A stretch of DNA of 64,000 nt, from positions 51,807 to 115,806 of the forward strand of contig CAYGEJ010000001.1 of the NCBI GenBank assembly GCA_964348935.1. Reading direction: 5' to 3'. The DNA is from an uncultured Candidatus Saccharibacteria bacterium. GTDB lineage: Bacteria > Patescibacteriota > Doudnabacteria > UBA920. Made by a program: the position numbers and the translations under genes. The notes under the pieces are model-generated. The model saw nothing but the letters and a program-made list of their open reading frames with translations, did no database searches and was not told where the DNA came from. Shown piece by piece: positions 29,720 to 57,174 of the stretch (within the stretch, counting starts at the first letter, position 1; each line of letters starts with the position of its first letter).

Positions 29720-31213
29720 ATGAAGGAATATCCAAAATCAGATGAATACAAAGCCGTAATTGGTTTTGAAATCCACGTTGAACTTAAAACTAAGTCCAAA
29801 ATGTTTGGGCCGGCTGTAAATAATCCAGACGAGGAAAAACCAAACTATAACATAGACGAAATTGTAACGGCTGAGCCTGGAACTTTACCCGTGGCGAATA
29901 AAGAAGCTATCCGTCTTTCCGCAATGGTTGGTTTGGCTATAAATTGTAAAATAGACGAATGGAGTAAGTTTGACCGTAAGCATTATTTTTACCCAGATTT
30001 GCCTAAAGGCTACCAAATTTCTCAGTTTGACCAACCAATTGCTAGAGATGGTTATTTAGACGTAACAGTTGCAGGACAAAGAGTTAGAATTGGTATAACT
30101 CGCGCTCATTTAGAAGAAGATGCAGGAAAAAATATGCACCCAGAAGGTTTGCCATATTCTTTAGTTGACTATAACCGCGCTGGTTGTGCATTACTTGAAA
30201 TTGTTACAGAACCAGATATAGAAAGCGGTGAACAAGCTAAAGCATTTTTAACCGAGCTTAGAAATATTATTCGTTATGTTGGAGCTAGTGATTGCAATAT
30301 GGAAAAAGGTACTATGCGTGTAGAGCCAAATATTTCTGTACGCAAACCAGGCGAAACCATATTGCCAAAATATAAATGTGAAGTTAAAAATATCAACTCT
30401 TTTAAGTTTGCGCAATTGGCAATAGACTACGAAATAGCTCGCCAAACTGAAATATTAAAAGAAGGTGGAATTCCAAAACAAGTAACAATGGGATGGGATG
30501 AGAAAAATAATTGTACAGTAGAACAGCGGAGTAAAGAAGAGGCGAATGACTACCGGTATTTTCCAGATCCAGACTTGCCGGTCATGCAATTTACTGAGGA
30601 GTATTTAAATGAACTGCGAGCGATAATGCCAGAGTTGCCTGCTCAAAAAAGAAGTAGGTTTTTGACTGAGTTTGCACTTCCAGAGGCAGATGTTGAAAAT
30701 TTAATTAATTGGAAAGAGTTGGCAAATTATTTCGAAGCAGTAGTGAGTGAGATTGAGGAGTGGATAGGGCAAGAGAAAGATTTAAATAGGAATAGCTTAA
30801 TAAAAAGTGCTGCCAATTGGTGTTTGCAAGATTTTTCTGCGTTACTGAATGCAGAACAATTAAATCCTTTGGATTCCAAAGTTGTACCAGAAAATTTTGC
30901 TGAACTTGTAATGCTTATTGTTCAAGGAAAAATTTCTAGCAGTGCGGCAAAAACTGTCTTTAAGGTAATGTTTGAAAAAGGCGGAGAACCTGACAATATT
31001 GTTCAAGATTTAGGTTTAACGCAAGTAAGTGATGAAAGTGCTATTTCTGGAGCAATAGATAAGGTCATAAGTGAAAATTCTAAAGCTGTAGAAGATTATA
31101 AAGCTGGAATGCAAAAGAGTTTTGGTTTTTTGGTGGGGCAAACCATGAAAGAACTTAAAGGAAAAGGTAACCCGCAAATTATAAACGAACTTTTGAAAAA
31201 GAAACTTAGTTAG
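29720..31213 (+). CDS. gatB: Asp-tRNA(Asn)/Glu-tRNA(Gln) amidotransferase subunit B
   Basis: GFEIHVELKTKSKMF N-terminus, GatB central region and C-terminal GatB/YqeY domain. 497 aa. Confidence 0.9.
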   Translation: MKEYPKSDEYKAVIGFEIHVELKTKSKMFGPAVNNPDEEKPNYNIDEIVTAEPGTLPVANKEAIRLSAMVGLAINCKIDEWSKFDRKHYFYPDLPKGYQISQFDQPIARDGYLDVTVAGQRVRIGITRAHLEEDAGKNMHPEGLPYSLVDYNRAGCALLEIVTEPDIESGEQAKAFLTELRNIIRYVGASDCNMEKGTMRVEPNISVRKPGETILPKYKCEVKNINSFKFAQLAIDYEIARQTEILKEGGIPKQVTMGWDEKNNCTVEQRSKEEANDYRYFPDPDLPVMQFTEEYLNELRAIMPELPAQKRSRFLTEFALPEADVENLINWKELANYFEAVVSEIEEWIGQEKDLNRNSLIKSAANWCLQDFSALLNAEQLNPLDSKVVPENFAELVMLIVQGKISSSAAKTVFKVMFEKGGEPDNIVQDLGLTQVSDESAISGAIDKVISENSKAVEDYKAGMQKSFGFLVGQTMKELKGKGNPQIINELLKKKLS

Positions 31214-31255
31214 CTAGTTGTATGTTATAAGTTGTAATAAGAATAGTAAAAAATA

Positions 31256-31289
31256 AACAACTCTGTACTATTAAAAGTACAGAGTTGTT
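31256..31289. terminator. bidirectional intrinsic terminator at the island 2 left edge (14-bp perfect stem)
   Basis: AACAACUCUGUACU-AUUAAA-AGUACAGAGUUGUU with U/A-runs on both sides. Serves gatB on the + strand and the minus-strand island operon. Confidence 0.5.
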
Positions 31290-31307
31290 TTAAAAATAAA
31301 AAAAATG

Positions 31308-31337
31308 CGTCGCCCATGCTGTGAAGCGAGGGCGACG
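31308..31337 (-). terminator. GC-rich intrinsic terminator of the minus-strand Cys-rich peptide operon
   Basis: Minus strand CGUCGCCC-loop-GGGCGACG followed by CAUUUUUUUUAUUUUU, 24 nt after the P3 stop codon. Confidence 0.5.
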
Positions 31338-31360
31338 GTTGGGTGGTTTGCGTTTCGTCA

Positions 31361-31684
31361 TTAAATAGGATGACGTGGGCTGTCGCCGAAAGGGTCGGAA
31401 TCCAGAAATTCTTTCCCTGGGTGCCCTGATTGGCTTGGTATGTCATCAGGGTTTCCAGAGGGGGTGTTGATGGTCGCACCCATCCAACCGTTATCCACAG
31501 CGGCTGAATTGTCTTCGAGGTAGTGCTCTTTCACACCACGTTTTGGCGACAGTAACCCGTCGGCGTATGGCGGGGCGATAATGATGGAATGTTGTAGTGG
31601 TTGCTGGCCAATCTTGTCGCAACAGTGACGTATGCTACAGGGTTGGTCAATTTCTTTATGGCAATTGCAAGGACATATCGCCAT
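31361..31684 (-). CDS. Cys/His-rich small protein P3 (107 aa), paralogue of the upstream 41-aa peptide plus a C-terminal extension
   Basis: Internal ATG of the 212-aa track ORF with an SD (UAAGGAGAAAAACU-AUG) that overlaps the stop of the preceding peptide gene. N-terminus MAICPCNCHKEIDQPCSIRHCCDKIGQQPL. GC-rich codon usage unlike the host. Confidence 0.5.
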   Translation of the reverse strand: MAICPCNCHKEIDQPCSIRHCCDKIGQQPLQHSIIIAPPYADGLLSPKRGVKEHYLEDNSAAVDNGWMGATINTPSGNPDDIPSQSGHPGKEFLDSDPFGDSPRHPI

Positions 31685-31695
31685 AGTTTTTCTCC

Positions 31696-31821
31696 TTAGT
31701 CTGTGAACGGGTGAGTTTGGTCGACCTCTTCGAGAGGTTTTCCTTTCTGCGAACAGCAACGGTGATTTTCGCACTCGTCGTTTTCTACTCCCACATGGCA
31801 AGAGCAGTGACAGGTTTTCAT
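31696..31821 (-). CDS. Cys/His-rich peptide P2 (41 aa): MKTCHCSCHVGVENDECENHRCCSQKGKPLEEVDQTHPFTD
   Basis: My own reverse-complement translation. ATG preceded by AAAGGAGGACUGGAAA. Not in the ORF track (under 60 aa). Shares C-x-C-x-C-H-x(6,7)-C-x(2,3)-H-x-C-C-x-K-x-G-x-x-P-L with P3. Confidence 0.45.
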   Translation of the reverse strand: MKTCHCSCHVGVENDECENHRCCSQKGKPLEEVDQTHPFTD

Positions 31822-31881
31822 TTTCCAGTCCTCCTTTGAATGAAATAGTAGCAAGAAAAGGGGAAAAAGGCAAAAAGAAAA

Positions 31882-31911
31882 CGCGGACAGGGTGGCAAGC
31901 CACTGTCCGCG
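31882..31911 (-). terminator. intra-operon intrinsic terminator or attenuator between the PEP-CTERM gene and the Cys-rich peptide genes
   Basis: Minus strand CGCGGACAG-UGGCUUGCCACC-CUGUCCGCG followed by UUUUCUUUUUGCCUUUUUCC. Confidence 0.4.
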
Positions 31912-31973
31912 TAAAGGTTGTAATGCGCGTTGCTATTTTTACCCAGCACTTTGCCGTGTGGTGGGGTTTCTTC

Positions 31974-32720
31974 TTACCGCTGGCGCCGTATCGCGGCAAT
32001 GCCTACGAGTCCAGCACCCATCAGTACGAAGGTCGTGGGTTCGGGAGTCTCGGTCCCAAGTCCACCCGACGGCTGGCTCGGAAAGCTGTAGTCCCAATAC
32101 TCAGGGTGGCGGTAAAAGTAAGGAGTGTGTTCACCCCTCAGGTAGTTTACAATCTCCCCAAGGTTGTTGATGTCGTAGGAGAACCACACTGAGGCGAGCA
32201 AGTAGTTATCGGTGTAACGATAACCGCTGTTAGTGCCGGCACAACCGCCACTAAGCCCTGCCAGAACCAAATCCCGGCAGTCGTAGGTACTGGTGGTGTT
32301 TTCTGATACCGCAATAAGCGACCTCGATTTTTGTCCGTAAACATGGGTTATGTTCTCGAACGGAAATAGGACTGTCTGGATATACGAGTTCGTTATAAAA
32401 CTCAACGATTCGTACAAGGTGTTAGTCCGTCCCGAGTTACTGGTTGGGTCTGTGAACATAGTAATGCTTACTTGATTGTCTTTTCTTTCGTTGAGACTTG
32501 AACCCTGGTAACTCGTAATCCAGCGACCAGAACCATCTGGGGCTTCGTATGACCCCTGATAGGTGGTGAGTGTGCGATAGTTGTAATCGTACCCATTGGC
32601 ATAACCACCATCTAAGTTGAGGTTCCAGGGCTGAAAATCGTCCTGGAGGACGATTGTGCCGGCCGTTGCCGACATGGCCAGAGCAAAAAAGCCGAACATA
32701 GAAATAAAAAGAGCGCGCAT
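31974..32720 (-). CDS. PEP-CTERM sorting-domain protein (secreted, Gly/Tyr/Asn-rich)
   Basis: Internal ATG with strong SD (AAGGAGGACUUAC-AUG). Signal peptide MRALFISMFGFFALAMSATAG. C-terminal TPEPTTFVLMGAGLVGIAAIRRQR is the PEP-CTERM tripartite motif (PEP, TM helix, Arg cluster). 248 aa from this start. The track ORF extends upstream to 32879 with no RBS. Confidence 0.6.
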   Translation of the reverse strand: MRALFISMFGFFALAMSATAGTIVLQDDFQPWNLNLDGGYANGYDYNYRTLTTYQGSYEAPDGSGRWITSYQGSSLNERKDNQVSITMFTDPTSNSGRTNTLYESLSFITNSYIQTVLFPFENITHVYGQKSRSLIAVSENTTSTYDCRDLVLAGLSGGCAGTNSGYRYTDNYLLASVWFSYDINNLGEIVNYLRGEHTPYFYRHPEYWDYSFPSQPSGGLGTETPEPTTFVLMGAGLVGIAAIRRQR

Positions 32721-32838
32721 GTAAGTCCTCCTTAAGGACTTGTGGAGCTTAAAAGCTCCACGGTTTTGTTCTTGGTTGGCCTTTAGGGGCCGAAAATAAA
32801 TAGATCGAACTGTTAAAAGTTTTACAGGTCGACGATAT

Positions 32839-32867
32839 ATTATACTCTTTTTTTGGGTTTTTGTCAA
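32839..32867 (-). promoter_or_regulatory. consensus sigma70 promoter (TTGACA-N17-TATAAT) of the island 2 operon
   Basis: Minus strand cattGACAaaaacccaaaaaaagagTATAATatatcg. About 115-nt structured 5' UTR, including a hairpin that pairs part of the SD (AAGUCC-UUAAGGA-GGACUU) next to the start codon. Confidence 0.4.
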
Positions 32868-32878
32868 TGCTAAATACA

Positions 32879-32906
32879 AATAACACCCTTATTTAAGGGT
32901 GTTATT
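32879..32906 (-). terminator. hairpin terminator or insulator at the island 2 right edge, downstream of the HTH gene
   Basis: AAUAACACCCU-UAUUUA-AGGGUGUUAUU (11-bp stem) then UUGUAUUU on the minus strand. Sits between the HTH gene stop and the island promoter. Confidence 0.4.
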
Positions 32907-32970
32907 TTTGGTTATTAGGTATTAGCTTATAGGTTTTAGTACAAAATTTATATTTTATACATAATTAAAG

Positions 32971-33225
32971 TTAACTGCTTGTGTTTGTTCTTTGCTTAGC
33001 TTTTTTATAAGCATTTTTAACCGTGACTAAATTTAGTCCAAGTTCCTTAGCAACTTCTTCAGGAGTTTTACCGGAGTCTACCATGTTCATTATTTGAAGC
33101 TGTCGTTCTGTAGCTTCTTTTCCTTTTGGGCTAAATTCTTCTAGAGCTCTACCAGCTTTAACTCTCATAGTAGGGTCTTCTAATACTTCTTGTAAATTTT
33201 TACTTAAGAATTTTTTCTCAGACAT
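32971..33225 (-). CDS. small DNA-binding protein with a sigma-70 region-4 / LuxR-type HTH
   Basis: 84 aa. LQIMNMVDSGKTPEEVAKELGLNLVTVKNAYKKAKQ resembles region 4.2 HTH. Start is a few nt from the miaA stop. Confidence 0.5.
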   Translation of the reverse strand: MSEKKFLSKNLQEVLEDPTMRVKAGRALEEFSPKGKEATERQLQIMNMVDSGKTPEEVAKELGLNLVTVKNAYKKAKQRTNTSS

Positions 33226-34189
33226 TTTTTAAAAAGTTAATTATTAGTTTAGTTGCAATGGAAACTTTTGGTGGTATCCAATTAATATTTTTATTTCGTT
33301 TCCACCAGGTAAGTTGACGCTTGGAATAATGTTTAATTGCAAATGAGAGTTGGGTTTGCATTTCTTCTTTGCTAATTTTATTTTGTATGTAGAGGGCTAA
33401 GTATTTGTATTCTAAGCCAAAACTTTCAAGTTTTTTCCAAGATAATTTATTTTTCTTAAGTTTCTTTACTTCTTCAAGCATTCCTTGCTTAAGTCGCTCA
33501 GCTAGACGTTTGTCTATTTTGTTGTAGAGATCAGTTTGATTTGTTTGGATTCCTAACCATAATACTTTATTACTGTTATCTGTTTGCTGTGAACTGTTTA
33601 CAGGAACTGGTTTGCCAGTGGTAATAACTATTTCTAAAGCTCGGACAAGACGGCGTTTATTAAATCTATCTATATTTGATGCGCGGGTACTATCTAACTT
33701 TTGCAATTGTGAAAATAATTTTTCCGCAGATTTTTTTTCTAAACTGGCGCGAAGTTTAAAATTTGGTTTAACTTCAGGAATTATTTGATTATTGACAAGT
33801 GCGTCTAACCAATGACCTGTACCACCACAAAGTATAGGTATGTGTCCGCGTTCTAAAATTTCTTGAATTTTTTTTTGGGCGACTCGCTGGAATTTTGCAA
33901 CTGAGAATTGTTGTTTTGGATTTAGAAAATCAATAAGGTGGTGGGGAATACCCTTATACTTGAATATAGAATTTTGTCCGCCAGCTGGCGGATTGAATTT
34001 GGACTTAGTCCATTTCCCTTGAACCTTACCAGTTCCCAAGTCCATACCTTTGTATATTTGCCTGCTGTCGGCAGAAATAATTTCACCATTAAAACGTTTA
34101 GCCAGTTTAACGGCTAACTCAGATTTTCCAGAGGCGGTAGGACCCACGATAGATATAAGCTTATAGGTTCTAGGGATTAAGCTTGGCAT
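33218..34189 (-). CDS. miaA: tRNA dimethylallyltransferase MiaA
   Basis: P-loop IVGPTASGKSELAVKLAKRF, ISADSRQIYKGMDLGTGK motif. 323 aa with a C-terminal extension. Confidence 0.85.
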   Translation of the reverse strand: MPSLIPRTYKLISIVGPTASGKSELAVKLAKRFNGEIISADSRQIYKGMDLGTGKVQGKWTKSKFNPPAGGQNSIFKYKGIPHHLIDFLNPKQQFSVAKFQRVAQKKIQEILERGHIPILCGGTGHWLDALVNNQIIPEVKPNFKLRASLEKKSAEKLFSQLQKLDSTRASNIDRFNKRRLVRALEIVITTGKPVPVNSSQQTDNSNKVLWLGIQTNQTDLYNKIDKRLAERLKQGMLEEVKKLKKNKLSWKKLESFGLEYKYLALYIQNKISKEEMQTQLSFAIKHYSKRQLTWWKRNKNINWIPPKVSIATKLIINFLKNV

Positions 34190-49760: not shown

Positions 49761-50447
49761 ATGGCAAAATTAGCAAAGAGAGTTAAAGCAAATAATGAAT
49801 TAGTAGATTTTAATAAAGTCTATTCAGCTGAAGAAGCTATTGAATTAGCTAAAAAGACTGCAACTACCAAGTTTGTTGGAAGTATTGAAGTGCATATTCG
49901 TACTTTAATTGAAGCCAAGAAAACAGACCAAGCGGTAAGAGGCACAGTTTCTTTGCCAAACGGCACTGGTAAAACCAAGCGCGTAGCCGCTTTCGTAACC
50001 GAATCCAAAGAAAAAGATGCTAAAGATGCGGGTGCTTTTGTGGTTGGTGGAGAAGATTTGATTAAGAAGATTAAAGAAACTGAAAAAACCGATTTCGATG
50101 TAGCTATTGCTGAACCAGCATTAATGCCTAAGCTTGCCGCTATTGCTAAAATTTTGGGTACTCGCGGACTTATGCCTAACCCAAAAACTGGCACCGTAGG
50201 ACCAAATATTGCTGAGATGGTAAAAGAAATTGCCGGTGGTAAAGTTAACTTTAAAAATGATGACTCCGGAAATATTCATCAAGTAATTGGTAAGACCAAT
50301 TTTGACAGTAAAGCATTGTTGGAAAATTTAAAAACATTTTATCAAGCGGTTTTACAAAGCAAGCCACAAACCGTAAAAGGACAATTAGTTGCCAGTGTGG
50401 TTTTAAATTCCACAATGGGACCTGGAATAAAGGTTAAAATAAGCTAA
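49761..50447 (+). CDS. rplA: 50S ribosomal protein L1
   Basis: From the internal ATG (MAKLAKRVKAN...), which gives the canonical L1 N-terminus. The track start at 49710 would translate through an intergenic hairpin (GGGACCCCGAUGUCCAUCGGGGGUUU). 228 aa. Confidence 0.9.
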   Translation: MAKLAKRVKANNELVDFNKVYSAEEAIELAKKTATTKFVGSIEVHIRTLIEAKKTDQAVRGTVSLPNGTGKTKRVAAFVTESKEKDAKDAGAFVVGGEDLIKKIKETEKTDFDVAIAEPALMPKLAAIAKILGTRGLMPNPKTGTVGPNIAEMVKEIAGGKVNFKNDDSGNIHQVIGKTNFDSKALLENLKTFYQAVLQSKPQTVKGQLVASVVLNSTMGPGIKVKIS

Positions 50448-50465
50448 TTATCTATTAAGTAAATA

Positions 50466-50494
50466 AGAAAGCCGGTGCATGGTTTGCACCGGCT
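50466..50494. terminator. rplA intrinsic terminator, also usable from the minus strand
   Basis: GCCGGUGCA-UGGUU-UGCACCGGC followed by UUUUGAUUU on the + strand and UUUCUUAUUU on the - strand. Confidence 0.55.
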
Positions 50495-50519
50495 TTTGAT
50501 TTGGGCGACGAAGTCATGG

Positions 50520-50654
50520 TTAGACTCCCCACAGGTATTGGTCATCATCAGGTTCTTGTGTTGTTGGTTGATCCAGTTTTTTATTGTTGGATTCCTCGTA
50601 AGGAAATCCGGTTGCATCTGCTTGATGAAAATCGCGTTGTGTATCGCTTTGCAT
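50520..50654 (-). CDS. possible 44-aa acidic peptide (MQSDTQRDFHQADATGFPYEESNNKKLDQPTTQEPDDDQYLWGV)
   Basis: My translation. ATG preceded by AAAGGGGGGCUUAUU. Lies between a minus-oriented terminator (50728-50750) and the rplA terminator. Not in the ORF track. Confidence 0.25.
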   Translation of the reverse strand: MQSDTQRDFHQADATGFPYEESNNKKLDQPTTQEPDDDQYLWGV

Positions 50655-50767
50655 AATAAGCCCCCCTTTGTGGCCTAATATCTGAGTATTTAAATAAACA
50701 GTCAGATATTAAAACACAAATAAAAACCCCGCTCCTTTTAGGGAAGCGGGAATTAAAGTTAAAGTAA

Positions 50768-50860
50768 TTAATTACTTGTTATAACCTTAACGAACCCAAA
50801 TTCCCTGGAGGAAATAAGGCTAAGAAGGAGAGACAACAAGTTTTGGTAAATATTTTTCAT
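50768..50860 (-). CDS. leaderless 30-aa hydrophobic peptide or sRNA module (MKNIYQNLLSLLLSLISSREFGFVKVITSN) driven by a consensus promoter
   Basis: Minus strand TTGACA(50891-96)-N16-TATAAT(50869-74), ATG 8 nt after the -10. Intrinsic terminator CCCGCU...AGCGGG-UUUUUUAUUUGUGUUUU at 50728-50750. Transcript about 130 nt and rich in anti-SD-like CUCCUUCUU/UUCCUCC. Coding status uncertain. Confidence 0.25.
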   Translation of the reverse strand: MKNIYQNLLSLLLSLISSREFGFVKVITSN

Positions 50861-50967
50861 GTATATAAATTATAGCTGATTTGGAAAAAGTGTCAAATGA
50901 CAAAATGAAAGCGACCCAGACTGCTTTCTCACTCGGTAAAGGTGAAGGGCTGTGGGGTCGCTTGTCG

Positions 50968-51246
50968 CTATTGGTTTGGCGTTAAAATCACCTCCTTTGA
51001 TGATTTGATTGCGGTTGGTTTTTGTACCATCCGTCGTGCTTCTCCAGCAAGTGAAGTTTCGTTTATTCTGGCAGACCAGATAAAGCGAGTTTCCTCTTGT
51101 GCAAGGTAGAAGCAGAATTCGTAATTCTCGTTACGGTGTTGAGCATTGTCTTTTAGGACAATGGTCACGCTTTTTCCGTCGAGAGTCGCGCTTATTCCAA
51201 CACAGGGAAAGTAGTTTTCAATTGGGTAAAGCAACTGCAGGGTCAT
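50968..51246 (-). CDS. hypothetical 92-aa protein (island 3)
   Basis: ATG preceded by AAAAGGAGCGUUU. GC-rich codons. Followed by a 7-bp stem/long-loop hairpin plus U-run. No recognisable domain. Confidence 0.45.
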   Translation of the reverse strand: MTLQLLYPIENYFPCVGISATLDGKSVTIVLKDNAQHRNENYEFCFYLAQEETRFIWSARINETSLAGEARRMVQKPTAIKSSKEVILTPNQ

Positions 51247-51352
51247 AAACGCTCCTTTTGTGGACTAAAAATTAAATCGACTCGGTGTCAATTTATTTTC
51301 CTAAGCCACAAAAAAAACCCGCCGCGGCGGGGAAGTAAGCTTAAATAAAACT

Positions 51353-51454
51353 TTAGCTATTTATTTCCCACAACCGCATAAATAAAGACTTGATGGACTT
51401 AGTGCCCATTTTGGTTGTCTTCTTGCTAATTTGGGAAACAATGAATAAATTCAT
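51353..51454 (-). CDS. second leaderless small-ORF or sRNA module (33 aa: MNLFIVSQISKKTTKMGTKSIKSLFMRLWEINS)
   Basis: Minus strand TTGACA(51484-89)-N17-TAATAT(51461-66), then ATG at the predicted TSS. Terminator CCCGCCGCGGCGGG-UUUUUUUU at 51318-51331. Transcript about 140 nt. Coding status uncertain. Confidence 0.2.
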   Translation of the reverse strand: MNLFIVSQISKKTTKMGTKSIKSLFMRLWEINS

Positions 51455-51540
51455 ATGAATATATTAAAGTATTTTAGAAATATTGTCAAAAAAATTCCCC
51501 GCCGGTTTGTAAGAGCCGGCGGGGTGTTTTGGATACCTTG

Positions 51541-51795
51541 CTACTTCAATAGTTGTAGATTTTGGCGGGCCCAGTTAATGAGTTCCTGCATCTCTTTTTT
51601 TGTAGGTTTTTCAAGCCCAAAGCCTTTGCCGTTTTTGTTCGAATAACCCTCACGAGACTGGCCACATAAAGTCAGATCGTGGTGTTGAAGAGGGTCTAAA
51701 CTTAGACTCAGCATCCTCATTCTGAGAGATTCGCCTTGAAGTTGAAATCCATATATTGCCTTCCCATTGGAAAGGTGGCCGTGAATTTTTTCCAT
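51541..51795 (-). CDS. hypothetical 84-aa protein (island 3)
   Basis: Internal ATG (MEKIHGH...) with SD UUUAAGGAGUGGGAAC-AUG. The track ORF starts 24 codons upstream with no RBS. Followed by terminator CCCCGCCGG-UUUGUAAGAG-CCGGCGGGG. Confidence 0.45.
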   Translation of the reverse strand: MEKIHGHLSNGKAIYGFQLQGESLRMRMLSLSLDPLQHHDLTLCGQSREGYSNKNGKGFGLEKPTKKEMQELINWARQNLQLLK

Positions 51796-51869
51796 GTTCC
51801 CACTCCTTAAAGTTTTTTTGCAACTTGGTTCTGGGGTTCTGTTAAAACTCCAAAATTTAGGTAACAAAA

Positions 51870-51893
51870 AACTCCTTCCGCCAAGGCGGAAGG
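51870..51893 (-). terminator. minus-oriented intrinsic terminator at the island 3 right edge (11-bp stem then U6)
   Basis: CUCCUUCCGCC-AA-GGCGGAAGGAG followed on the minus strand by UUUUUUGUU. No minus-strand gene lies upstream of it, so it reads as an insulator. Confidence 0.4.
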
Positions 51894-52074
51894 AGTAAAG
51901 TTTAAGTAAAAAACTATTAACTCAACCGTCTTGGAAAAGAAAGAATAATAATGCTTATAATAGAAATTTTATCCTGAATTAACTTCATACAAAGTAATTT
52001 TAAAGGAAACCTAGCCTTTTTGTCAATTACTGTAAGATATAGTAGAATTGAATATATTACTAAAATAAAATTAT

Positions 52075-52608
52075 ATGGCAGAAGAGCGAAAGCATTTTAG
52101 ACCTTCGTGGGATGATTATTTTATGGCTATTGCCAAGATAATTGCGGCCAGAGGAACCTGTGATAGGCTTTACGCCGGTTCAGTTTTGGTTAAAGATAAT
52201 AGAATTATTGCTACTGGATATAATGGTTCGCCAGCAGGGTTACCACATTGTAACGATGTAGGTCATTTACTTGAAGAAGGGCATTGTGTGAGAACTGTGC
52301 ATGGTGAACATAATTCACTATTACAAGCTGCCAGACAAGGTGGAACTGCCACACAAGGTTCAACTATGTATACCAAATATAGCCCTTGCATTCATTGTAC
52401 TAAGTACGTAATTGCTTGTGGAATTAAACGAGTAGTTATTGGTAAAATTTATAGAAACCCTCAAGCATTAGATATGCTTAAAGAAGCAGGTGTGGTGGTA
52501 GATGTGTATGCAGAAAACGAAAATTGGCGTGGGGAGTTAGGTCAAATTTTTATGGAAGATATTCCTGTCAGGCAAAATGAAGGTGAAGTAAAAATGGCAA
52601 ATAAATAA
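52075..52608 (+). CDS. dCMP deaminase (ComEB-type cytidine/deoxycytidylate deaminase)
   Basis: Zinc motifs H(G)EHN (TVHGEHNSLLQAARQG) and PCxxC (SPCIHCTKYVIACGIKRVV). 177 aa. Confidence 0.8.
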   Translation: MAEERKHFRPSWDDYFMAIAKIIAARGTCDRLYAGSVLVKDNRIIATGYNGSPAGLPHCNDVGHLLEEGHCVRTVHGEHNSLLQAARQGGTATQGSTMYTKYSPCIHCTKYVIACGIKRVVIGKIYRNPQALDMLKEAGVVVDVYAENENWRGELGQIFMEDIPVRQNEGEVKMANK

Positions 52609-55791: not shown

Positions 55792-56271
55792 ATGATTTCA
55801 ATAATTGCTGCTGTAGCGGAAAATAATGTTATAGGTATAAACAACACTCTTCCGTGGAATATCCCAGAAGATTTAAAACATTTTCAGGAAGTTACCAAAG
55901 GTAAAATTGTTTTAATGGGCAATAAAACATTTGAGTCTATTGTTTCTATTTTGGGTAAGCCACTGCCAAACAGAAAAAATGTTGTGGTAACATTAAATAA
56001 ATCCTATACTGTGCCAGCTGGAGTGGAGTTGGAGTTTGATTTATTTAATGCTTTAGAAAAATATAAAAATGAAGATTTATTTGTAATTGGCGGGGCGCAA
56101 ATTTGGAAATTGGCTTTGCCATTTGTAGACCAGTTGTATATAACTCACGTACATAAAAATTATGAAGGCGATGCTTTTTTCCCAGAAGTTAACTGGCAAG
56201 AATGGGAAAAAGTAGAAGAAGAAAAGCATTCAGAGTTTACATTTGCTAAATACATAAAAAAATCCCCATAA
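55792..56271 (+). CDS. folA: dihydrofolate reductase
   Basis: MISIIAAVAENNVIGINNTLPWNIPEDLKHFQEVTKGKIVLMG is the canonical DHFR N-terminus. 159 aa. Stop codon lies in the loop of a CCCCA-UAAU-UGGGG hairpin. Confidence 0.85.
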   Translation: MISIIAAVAENNVIGINNTLPWNIPEDLKHFQEVTKGKIVLMGNKTFESIVSILGKPLPNRKNVVVTLNKSYTVPAGVELEFDLFNALEKYKNEDLFVIGGAQIWKLALPFVDQLYITHVHKNYEGDAFFPEVNWQEWEKVEEEKHSEFTFAKYIKKSP

Positions 56272-56334
56272 TTGGGGTTTAAATTTAAATTGTGGCCGAA
56301 AGTGTAATTCGGCCGAAGTTTTTCGGACTCTTTG

Positions 56335-56547
56335 TTAGGAGTCCTGTTTTTTTGGTTGCTCAAGTCGGATCGCGGTTTTGTACGCCCATTTGGAAATGGG
56401 CATGAAAATCGAGATTCCATGGAGTATGGTCACTCCTACGGTGTTGCTAGTGCAACTTTCGGGAGTGTAGCACGCTCCATTTGCCATGGGTATTACCCAA
56501 AACTCGAGTGCCAGGCTCAGTAAGCCAAAACCAAGAAACCAATACAT
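56335..56547 (-). CDS. secreted or membrane-anchored 70-aa peptide with two Cys (island 4)
   Basis: ATG preceded by GUAGGAGGGCACA. Signal or TM segment MYWFLGFGLLSLALEFWVIPMANGA, then CYTPESCTSNTVGVTILHG... Divergent from the RHH regulator gene. Its stop overlaps a folA terminator hairpin. Confidence 0.45.
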   Translation of the reverse strand: MYWFLGFGLLSLALEFWVIPMANGACYTPESCTSNTVGVTILHGISIFMPISKWAYKTAIRLEQPKKQDS

Positions 56548-56654: not shown

Positions 56655-56683
56655 TTGACAAAACGGGTAAAAGGGTGTATAAT
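56655..56683 (+). promoter_or_regulatory. consensus sigma70 promoter (TTGACA-N17-TATAAT) for the RHH regulator gene, with a second TATAAT 15 nt downstream
   Basis: cccTTGACAaaacgggtaaaagggtgTATAATaatcaattttttgtTATAATttg. Lies 50 nt upstream of the ATG at 56734. Confidence 0.4.
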
Positions 56684-56733: not shown

Positions 56734-57174
56734 ATGTCACAATATATCGATCGTCACAAAAACAAACGTATGGTTGCACCAAGACTGTGCGAAACCGAAA
56801 TCCAAAAGCTCATGGCAACAAGGATGTTGCCAGGTCACGACCGCCATTCGAGGTTAGAGTTTTTGCTTACGCTAATGACCGAATTAGCCGAGCAGGAACT
56901 TGAATATCGTTTGGCGCCTACTAATACAGAGGCAAGGCATGGGCACGGAACACATCTTCGTATTTCAGACGAGCTGTGGGACAGATTACAAACCTATGCT
57001 TCAGTGTATAGGATGAGAACAGGTGAGCTTGCTCACGAACTGATACTGCTTGGCCTAGAGCTAGTGGAAGAAATAGAGAAAGTGGTCAAGTGGCCACTTA
57101 GGAAGGAGGAGATAAAAAGCCGGTTTAAAAGGACACTTGAACTTCGGTATGGGCGCATGCGCCAGCCGATTTAA
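56734..57174 (+). CDS. tandem ribbon-helix-helix (RHH) DNA-binding protein, putative repressor
   Basis: Two beta-alphaA-alphaB units: KRMVAPRLCETEIQKLMATRMLPGHDRHSRLEFLLTLMTELAEQ and THLRISDELWDRLQTYASVYRMRTGELAHELILLGLELVEE. GC-rich. 146 aa. Confidence 0.5.
   Translation: MSQYIDRHKNKRMVAPRLCETEIQKLMATRMLPGHDRHSRLEFLLTLMTELAEQELEYRLAPTNTEARHGHGTHLRISDELWDRLQTYASVYRMRTGELAHELILLGLELVEEIEKVVKWPLRKEEIKSRFKRTLELRYGRMRQPI

Follow-up and report, generated by a model that had tools for sequence, protein, structure and literature searches.

Leader-peptide attenuation is the textbook control of amino-acid biosynthetic operons in free-living bacteria. Here we compare the described systems of this kind with an island found in a 64,000-nucleotide stretch of DNA from an uncultured Candidatus Saccharibacteria bacterium (the whole of this stretch is called the window). 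The island lies on the minus strand between rplA and the dCMP deaminase gene and carries three short cassettes, C, A and B, each made up of a promoter, a very short open reading frame (mini-ORF) and an intrinsic terminator, with a small gene (the cargo) behind it. On the strength of the sequence, its relatives and modelled RNA folds, we favour the reading that the island consists of three leaderless ribosome-mediated transcription attenuators, each probably wired to the small gene that follows.

By analogy, the closest known system is the leaderless attenuator of Corynebacterium glutamicum ilvBNC. There, IlvL (MTIIRLVVVTARRLP) starts 1 nt from the transcription start site and has no ribosome-binding site; the short leader is rich in branched-chain codons, and the system is completed by alternating hairpins that end in an intrinsic terminator, from which a short RNA is released (PMC11857589). 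Cassette C appears to have the same parts. However, the cassettes of the window are more compact, the gene beginning 71-75 nt past the terminator, and they stand three in a row with a different codon run in each. Furthermore, their cargo consists of orphan genes of 44-92 amino acids (aa) rather than biosynthetic enzymes, in a Saccharibacteria-like organism. No sequence similarity was found between the cassettes and any Rfam leader family.

The enterobacterial attenuators trpL, ilvL (of ilvGMEDA), leuL and thrL have the same four-region logic, in which regions 1-2 resemble regions 3-4. They also have in common with the cassettes a codon run followed by a Pro/Gly/Ala/Arg-rich tail that derives from a GC-rich stem: the leader of one relative of the window (locus L105) ends in IIIIITPTPPGLGRVLV, and IlvL of E. 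coli ends in ...VVVIIIPPCGAALGRGKA. The window leaders differ in having no Shine-Dalgarno (SD) sequence, in that some of the ORFs run well past region 2, and in that the cargo is not biosynthetic.

Two further kinds of system can be compared. In mycobacteria, polycysteine leaderless short ORFs are described as a sensory first cistron, present in several independent copies that respond to one amino acid (a 'ribulon'), and a ribosome stalled on them changes how the RNA folds downstream (Canestrari et al., bioRxiv 10.1101/834739). A leaderless sensory short ORF would be common to both systems, but the mycobacterial switch is translational, the stalled ribosome unmasking the next gene's ribosome-binding site, whereas in the window an intrinsic terminator stands between leader and gene. 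The mycobacterial loci are, moreover, cysteine-metabolism genes, and the amino acids differ from those of the window cassettes. Similarly, in bmrB-bmrCD of B. subtilis (PMC4191407) and in the mef/mel leader (PMC4335068), the position of the ribosome on the leader decides read-through into non-biosynthetic genes, as it would in the window. Those leaders have an SD sequence and detect ribosomes stalled by a drug through the sequence of their peptide, whereas the window cassettes carry a conserved single-amino-acid codon run.

Full-text searches turned up no paper that deals with either attenuators or leaderless mRNAs in Saccharibacteria or Patescibacteria. Saccharibacteria are host-dependent and have reduced genomes and, to our knowledge, the group is without amino-acid biosynthesis. 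If our reading is right, a familiar regulatory device occurs in an unexpected organism and ahead of unexpected genes: the phylum, the compact size, the three flavours in tandem, the hypervariable junction and the orphan cargo in place of biosynthetic genes would all set it apart from the known systems. These organisms would then use the speed of the ribosome to gauge how well each amino acid is supplied, and an amino-acid signal would switch on accessory genes. Regulation in Patescibacteria, a largely unexplored subject, would thereby become more open to study, and the three cassette families could be used as markers for condition-dependent accessory genes in metagenomes.

One module used three times

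The island (50448-52030) is one module repeated three times on the minus strand: a sigma-70 type promoter, a leaderless mini-ORF, an intrinsic terminator, a spacer with a hairpin (71-75 nt from terminator to cargo ATG in all three modules), an SD sequence, the cargo ORF and a terminator. The order is C before the 84-aa ORF, A before the 92-aa ORF and B before the 44-aa ORF (Table 1). A short ORF at the 5' end that shares its promoter with the downstream gene, a codon run, and an intrinsic terminator between the two are features of leader-peptide attenuators, and all are found here. We searched the whole window for a strong promoter followed by an ATG 4-10 nt after the -10 hexamer, 10-45 codons and a terminator. 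If only sites that start with ATG and have the consensus -35 hexamer TTGACA are counted, this architecture occurs 3 times, each time within the island; in ~935 kb of loci it gave 4 unrelated weak matches, all the remaining matches being members of the cassette families.

Every element listed in a preliminary description of this DNA lies where that description placed it, and its promoter and terminator calls survive quantitative scoring by a consensus scan, which counts 5 terminator-like sites in the island where shuffled sequences have 1.4 +/- 1.3. The mini-ORFs do begin at the expected transcription start, the ATG being 6-8 nt past the -10 hexamer. Some of its claims need recasting. The terminator at 51896-51871, which it had taken for one with no gene upstream, is present but ends a third cassette, the promoter (52026-51997) and 23-aa ORF (51988-51917) of which fall just beyond the right boundary drawn at that time. 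The terminator that it placed after the 92-aa ORF exists as a long-loop hairpin at ~50961-50911, followed by TTTCATTTTG, but was not called by the consensus scan. It had also called the segment GC-rich, and at 40.3% G+C the island does fall in the top 5% of same-size windows. However, the excess over the mean of the window (36.1%, an AT-rich genome) is modest and sits in the three SD-led ORFs (42-44%), while the cassettes themselves are AT-rich (30-32%). Finally, the proposal that the units are individually insulated finds no support: they pair instead, a leaderless cassette coming first and an SD-led ORF second, and at the scan threshold the ORF lacks its own promoter (no minus-strand promoter of at least 9/12 was found ahead of the 84-, 92- or 44-aa ORF). 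The same pairing of a cassette with an SD-led ORF is seen again in relatives.

At the gathering threshold, Rfam 15 finds two tRNAs only in the window; within 50400-52100 every match is below the gathering score, and the alignments shown cover mainly terminator hairpins. No credible match to Pfam, PHROG, NCBIfam or PADLOC was obtained for the mini-ORFs or the cargo ORFs. Among the gene calls inspected, most mini-ORFs had been skipped, the sole call being one 33-aa A peptide in locus L086.

Cassette families and changing cargo in relatives

Relatives were recovered by an architecture scan together with nhmmer in loci fetched by the dCMP deaminase as anchor (designated L). The 22 units collected from 13 loci, several of them near-identical, sort into three families at one junction. 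In all 21 scan-called units, the -35 hexamer is TTGACA and the ATG start falls 6-10 nt past the -10 hexamer, which leaves no room for an SD sequence if transcription starts where we infer that it does. Family C, which is Ile-rich, has members in L084, L086, L092, L096, L098, L100, L105 and L176, and the Ile run is kept in all of them. The Leu-rich family B occurs in L086/L087, L092, L101 and L102, and the Lys/Thr-rich family A in L084, L086, L090, L096, L098, L100 and L103, with in-frame indels. An exact-pattern scan with the core of unit A gave 0 matches in Joint Genome Institute (JGI) metagenomes and 0 in viral contigs.

The frame of the mini-ORFs and the place of their stop codon persist even where the sequence has changed. 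This codon lies 12-27 nt ahead of the terminator in 19/19 units that could be scored by script, and indels between lineages are in frame. Ser codons switch between tct and agc in family C (window against L084) and in family B (window against L086), and Leu codons between ttg and ctc in family B. The A peptides of the window, L084 and L086 are fully divergent past codon 24, yet all stop at codon 33. When differences are counted by codon position (255/324/384, 335/348/425 and 112/118/144), the third position is mildly enriched. The codon runs persist while the flanking residues vary, and the nucleotides right after the run are kept as well: members of C have 4-7 Ile, mostly in a 9-codon run (9 units), those of B have 4-7 Leu, and those of A have 4-6 Lys and 2-5 Thr. 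In the mini-ORF C of the window there are seven Ile, six of them within I8-I15.

These properties also bear on whether the mini-ORFs might be stand-alone genes for small proteins of 23-33 aa, the ORFs behind them being expressed from weak promoters or through incidental leak at the terminator. Each cassette is a full transcription unit whose signals are strong, the cassettes stay in place as the genes next to them change, and trans-functional leader peptides such as peTrpL are known (PMC7298713). The conserved frame and ORF length, and the N-terminal motif xSQIxK kept in family A, would be expected of such genes too. However, the N-termini of the peptides are hypervariable and the overall peptide constraint is weak, so that a leader fits better than a working protein; conservation is concentrated instead in the codon run and in the stretch complementary to the terminator. 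We consider stand-alone genes unlikely for these reasons.

A second possibility is that the terminated transcripts of 125-145 nt are trans-acting small RNAs, perhaps dual-function and derived from attenuators, that pair with SD regions through stretches such as CUCCUUCUU. The preliminary description had drawn attention to this stretch of cassette B as anti-SD-rich. It proves to be the conserved in-frame Leu/Ser codon run of the Leu-rich leader family, and synonymous switches upstream of it keep the amino acid, not the bases. Compact promoter-to-terminator units, folds better than those of shuffled sequences (z -2.7 to -2.95 for all three window transcripts) and high nucleotide conservation would suit a small RNA, and the attenuator-derived rnTrpL is a precedent (PMC6614838). 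A small RNA would not, on the other hand, need conserved open frames, stop positions and in-frame indels, and no Rfam family was matched at threshold, the sub-threshold matches falling mainly on terminator hairpins. No observation made here calls for a role in trans, and this explanation strikes us as rather improbable. A candidate observation on family B, that its 3' part is conserved across a frameshift, was dropped when an ungapped in-frame alignment explained it equally well.

The preliminary description had further compared the architecture with type I toxin modules, and mini-ORFs B and C are indeed short hydrophobic peptides on small, tightly terminated transcripts. Nevertheless, no peptide reaches the Kyte-Doolittle transmembrane criterion of 1.6: over 19 residues the maxima are 1.32 and 1.39 for the B and C mini-ORFs, with apolar runs of 11 residues (0.12-1.39 and 5-11 residues among all window peptides). 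No plus-strand promoter lies within or beside A or B, so that no antisense promoter covers either; the sole one, opposite C (51932-51961), is probably the promoter of the dCMP deaminase gene, judged by the consensus scan only. The mRNAs are predicted to be leaderless, with no structured 5' untranslated region, and what is conserved is an Ile or Leu run and not a segment of helix length. Toxins are thus a most improbable explanation of these two peptides, and leader-peptide attenuation is the reading that we carry forward.

The cassettes outlast the genes behind them. Compared with L084, the cassette C region is 89% identical, the spacer 90%, the terminator with promoter A 87%, and the first 72 nt of mini-ORF A 96%, which makes this the best-conserved segment of the locus; the 84-aa gene is 71% identical and the flanking housekeeping genes 75-89%. 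Cassettes and spacers are 87-96% identical to L084 despite the saturation of synonymous sites in the 84-aa gene. In contrast, cargo genes differ by lineage without detectable similarity, except for the 84-aa family and between close lineages (L096, L098), and the cassette-cargo pairings are shuffled between lineages. C stands ahead of the 84-aa family (three lineages), of a 111-aa ORF (L086), and of RidA and threonine dehydratase (L092); A precedes ORFs of 92, 90, 70 or ~55 aa; and B precedes ORFs of 44, 81, 99 or 59 aa.

The arrangement in L092 (1968-3708, minus strand) is the strongest single piece of gene-context evidence, and it is suggestive of attenuation. There, the Ile-rich cassette is the only recognizable promoter for RidA and threonine dehydratase (IlvA; PALP and Thr_dehydrat_C domains), and the cassette terminator plus 34 nt alone separate the leader from RidA/IlvA. 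This is the one case in which the cargo makes the amino acid that the run would sense, and the absence of any other promoter for the pair is a further point against stand-alone mini-ORF genes. L092 is a Patescibacteria-type contig from a metagenome-assembled genome (MAG; GCA_038203095.1) in which RidA and a threonine dehydratase with a C-terminal regulatory domain adjoin the deoxynucleoside triphosphate (dNTP) operon. Both genes are unexpected in a group thought to lack amino-acid biosynthesis.

The content of the junction also varies among the anchored loci. A relative with an uninterrupted junction, which the preliminary description had proposed to look for, does exist: on the contig of P0004, a dCMP deaminase relative, the gap from rplA to the dCMP deaminase gene is 102 nt. 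Unrelated genes occupy the junction on the P0010 contig and in L004, and analogous minus-strand islands lie there in L086-L089, L090/L091, L092/L093, L096, L098-L103 and L105. Perhaps, then, the junction of rplA and the dNTP operon is, in this Saccharibacteria clade, a cassette array in which portable, conserved leaderless Ile, Leu and Lys/Thr sensors stay and the small genes that follow them keep being exchanged for others, so that an epibiont unable to make amino acids ties fast-evolving accessory proteins to the amino-acid supply of its host. We offer this wider proposal tentatively and have appreciable doubts about it; interaction with the host is one possible role of such accessory proteins.

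Alternative folds and a proposed attenuation model

In the model that we propose for each cassette, transcription would start at, or 1-2 nt before, the AUG of the mini-ORF, and the leader would be translated without an SD sequence. The codon run would act as the sensor (Ile in C, Leu in B, Lys/Thr in A), and past the run the ORF would encode an imperfect copy of the downstream terminator hairpin. When the charged tRNA (Ile, Leu or Lys/Thr) is scarce, the ribosome would stall in the run and leave this copy free; the copy would pair with the terminator 5' arm once this emerges, the hairpin could then not form and RNA polymerase would enter the SD-led gene of 84, 92 or 44 aa. An unstalled ribosome would cover the copy, allowing the terminator to form and an RNA of 125-145 nt to be released.

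Computed folds are consistent with such a copy. For the 126-nt RNA of cassette C, the minimum free energy structure is the alternative fold, with both arms of the terminator paired to the 3' part of the mini-ORF, and RNAalifold chooses the same pairing on the family C alignment. Per-sequence energy tests were used because MAFFT alignments shift the terminator arms between lineages. In a whole-hairpin test, the part of the ORF upstream of a terminator shows complementarity to all of the terminator hairpin, with z from -1.0 to -5.9 and a Fisher p of ~5e-18 over 17 semi-independent units; the upstream region is, in other words, an imperfect terminator copy, regions 1-2 resembling regions 3-4. The upstream region of a unit also pairs with its own terminator better than do those of other units (Fisher p ~0.009), and stand-alone small-protein genes would give no reason for the complementary stretch to track its own terminator in this way. 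In the window, the duplex of cassette C reaches -23.4 kcal/mol against -12.1 +/- 2.9 in shuffles, that of cassette B -21.8 against -15.5 +/- 3.3 (p 0.054), and that of cassette A -15.5 against -11.9 +/- 2.5 (p 0.09), which is weak.

Full folds were compared in a similar manner. The terminator and alternative folds are near iso-energetic relative to shuffles (overall Fisher 4e-8). In all five lineages of family C, the alternative lies within 0.4-8 kcal/mol of the terminator fold, against 10-16 in shuffles (p <= 0.026), and 2/4 B units and 2/7 A units also have near iso-energetic folds. Cassette C of the window is a clear two-state fold, with a free-energy difference (ddG) of 1.1 kcal/mol against 13.8 +/- 2.7 in the null. 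We also scanned ribosome positions, masking 28 nt around each A-site codon and folding the RNA to the terminator loop. As long as the A site was no further along than the run, the terminator 5' arm was paired upstream in 11/11 units, and in most of these 11 it was freed a few codons beyond the run. In cassette A, a long conserved hairpin joins the conserved 5' block to a segment able to pair with the terminator, and the candidate antiterminator partner of that terminator is at 51366-51379.

A number of results weigh against attenuation and have shaped the confidence that we place in it. First, the transcription start, leaderless translation, stalling, the identity of the signal and read-through expression of the cargo are steps that we infer. 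Second, the folding results are uneven: in the window, cassette B has a ddG of 3.3 kcal/mol against 6.2 +/- 3.0 in the null, which is marginal, and cassette A, at 6.0 against 4.4, is unsupported by the test. An antiterminator test that used the terminator 5' arm only was weak (Fisher 0.0015 against shuffles, and p ~0.1 by Fisher to 0.03 by Wilcoxon against other families), and was replaced by the whole-hairpin and full-fold tests. Third, the free RNA is also predicted to take the antiterminated fold in most units, which, unlike the case of trp, would mean read-through without translation. Region 2 is re-exposed in some units when the ribosome reaches the stop codon, and some ORFs extend well beyond region 2, so that arguments from timing are needed. 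Finally, the gene context is unusual. Conserved leaders combined with turnover of the 'regulated' genes are atypical of cis-regulators, which keeps in contention a function of the cassettes themselves, be it as small proteins or as trans-acting RNAs; the window cargo consists of orphans with no tie to amino-acid metabolism, and no biosynthesis or import gene for a sensed amino acid stands behind a window cassette. The match of IlvA to an Ile cassette in L092 would be expected by chance one time in three.

Taken at the level of the families, a mutually exclusive antiterminator is predicted by the folding models; in the window, it is clear for C, marginal for B and unsupported for A. Accounting for all the evidence, attenuation within the window appears strongly supported for cassette C, moderately for B and weakly for A, which is the least secure of the three.

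Features of the island and of its surroundings

Table 1. Positions of the island features and of the flanking genes in the window.
Feature	Position	Strand	Remarks
Left flank, secE-like/ydjM-nusG-rplK-rplA	rplA 49761-50447	plus	
Right flank, dNTP-metabolism operon	dCMP deaminase 52075-52608	plus	then P-loop kinase, dUTPase, dNMP kinase
Promoter of cassette C	51997..52026	minus	TTGACA-18-TAAAAT, 11/12; conserved in L084 and L176
Leaderless mini-ORF C, 23 aa	51917..51988	minus	MKLIQDKISIISIIILSFPRRLS; ATG (51988) 8 nt past -10
Regions 1-2 of cassette C	51919..51947	minus	imperfect terminator copy in 3' part of mini-ORF; the two terminator arms can pair with it
Intrinsic terminator of cassette C	51865..51896	minus	11-bp stem, U6; 20 nt after stop codon; consensus scan 51896-51871
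Conserved spacer hairpin, terminator C to 84-aa SD	51829..51855	minus	also L084 ~2164-2192, L176 ~131-159
84-aa cargo gene	51541..51795	minus	SD AAGGAG 51808-51803
Terminator hairpin after 84-aa gene	51497..51524	both	bidirectional; consensus scan
Promoter of cassette A	51461..51489	minus	TTGACA-17-TAATAT, 10/12
Leaderless mini-ORF A, 33 aa, Lys/Thr-rich	51353..51454	minus	MNLFIVSQISKKTTKMGTKSIKSLFMRLWEINS; ATG (51454) 6 nt past -10
Intrinsic terminator of cassette A	51310..51331	minus	CCCGC-CGCG-GCGGG, U8; consensus scan 51331-51318
92-aa cargo ORF	50968..51246	minus	SD AAGGAG 51257-51252
Promoter of cassette B	50869..50896	minus	TTGACA-16-TATAAT, 12/12
Leaderless mini-ORF B, 30 aa, Leu-rich	50768..50860	minus	MKNIYQNLLSLLLSLISSREFGFVKVITSN; ATG 50860
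Regions 1-2 of cassette B	50794-50821	minus	
Intrinsic terminator of cassette B	50721..50751	minus	consensus scan 50751-50727
44-aa acidic cargo ORF	50520..50654	minus	SD AGGGGGG 50667-50661
Terminator common to rplA (plus) and 44-aa ORF (minus)	50468..50496	both	bidirectional; consensus scan, minus strand 50496-50468

The SD sequences in Table 1 were read off the sequence. Among the three cargo ORFs, the 84-aa gene has the best-documented relatives. P0003, a homologue with 62% identity, is encoded on L084 in the same position beside the dCMP deaminase gene; P0124, a distant homologue (45% over 60 aa), is on L176; and a third, remote match, P0125, was obtained together with P0124 in a profile search of 1.84 billion representatives. 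A C-type cassette precedes the genes of the 84-aa protein, P0003 and P0124 alike. Between the window and L084, the ratio of non-synonymous to synonymous rates (dN/dS) is 0.19 with dS 1.7, synonymous sites being near saturation; it follows that the 84-aa ORF is a real gene and that neutral sites have been randomized. The 84-aa protein has no match in Pfam, PHROG, NCBIfam or PADLOC, and its AlphaFold2 (AF2) model has a predicted local distance difference test score (pLDDT) of 48. In P0125, a metagenomic protein of 161 aa, the C-terminal motif of the 84-aa family (WKGTG..SPTK.EM.ELY.WL) is present in two copies, a repetition that suggests, at the sequence level, a small repeatable domain. P0125 also has a weak, sub-threshold match to DUF505.

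The 92-aa ORF has a self-match only among 5.8 billion proteins and no family match in Pfam, PHROG, NCBIfam or PADLOC; the pLDDT of its AF2 model is 45. It is recorded from Logan assemblies only, whereas the 84-aa protein and ribosomal protein L1 of the same contig are also in NCBI, so that the 92-aa ORF is apparently unannotated in the deposited genome. The contig itself is found again in ERR3094302 and ERR3094292. The terminator-like element that follows it (50911-50961, minus strand, AAGCGACCCCAC...GGGTCGCTTTCATTTTG) resembles an element at ~4322-4349 of L086 (80% over 30 nt). The L086 element comes after an unrelated 90-aa ORF, and the 92- and 90-aa ORFs both stand behind an A-type cassette; judged from sequence, the shared post-cargo element hints that cargo has been swapped between conserved flanks. 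For the 44-aa ORF, no homologue was found among the compared loci; large protein collections were not searched.

Each spacer has its own structure. The hairpin between terminator C and the 84-aa gene (TTYTGGAGT...ACYCCAGAA) is shared by the window, L084 and L176, and what is a U.G wobble in the window has become a C-G pair in L084. Its role might be that of a further regulatory element, of a stabilizer or of a site for processing. The spacer at 51259-51310 (minus strand) forms a long stem, TGTGGCTTAGGAAAAT...ATTTTTAGTCCACA, directly before the SD of the 92-aa ORF, and that at 50677-50710 (minus strand) holds an AT-rich palindrome, AATATCTGA-N16-TCAGATATT, directly before the SD of the 44-aa ORF. 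An integron-like attC reading of these hairpins was set aside: there is no integrase among the annotated genes of the window, and the hairpins are mutually unlike.

On the plus strand, the promoter-like site opposite mini-ORF C (TGGAAA-18-TATAAT, 10/12) is antisense to it and directed into the dCMP deaminase gene, and a second candidate promoter lies nearby at 52020-52048. Use of the first would make the 5' ends of the two divergent transcripts overlap by ~20 nt. The L1 protein of the window has its nearest relatives in Saccharibacteria/Patescibacteria MAGs, with 70% identity to a contig labelled 'uncultured Candidatus Saccharibacteria'. The dCMP deaminase has 72-88% identity with proteins that bear the labels Parcubacteria, Buchananbacteria, Kuenenbacteria and others, whereas L1 identity drops to 50-70% even in the nearest genomes; either the deaminase is unusually conserved or its gene has been exchanged within the radiation.

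Elsewhere in the window, a perfect 12/12 promoter (56655-56683, plus strand) lies in a GC-richer patch, 50 nt upstream of a 146-aa ORF (56734-57174) without a Pfam match, and a cluster of plus-strand terminator-like hairpins (56264-56344) lies just upstream of this promoter; there is no leaderless mini-ORF in the patch. The most GC-rich patch of the window, at up to 49%, is at 31200-33225 (minus strand). It encodes a PEP-CTERM-motif protein (31974-32879) and an 84-aa LuxR/GerE-type helix-turn-helix protein (32971-33225), adjoins miaA (33218-34189), and may be another acquired island.

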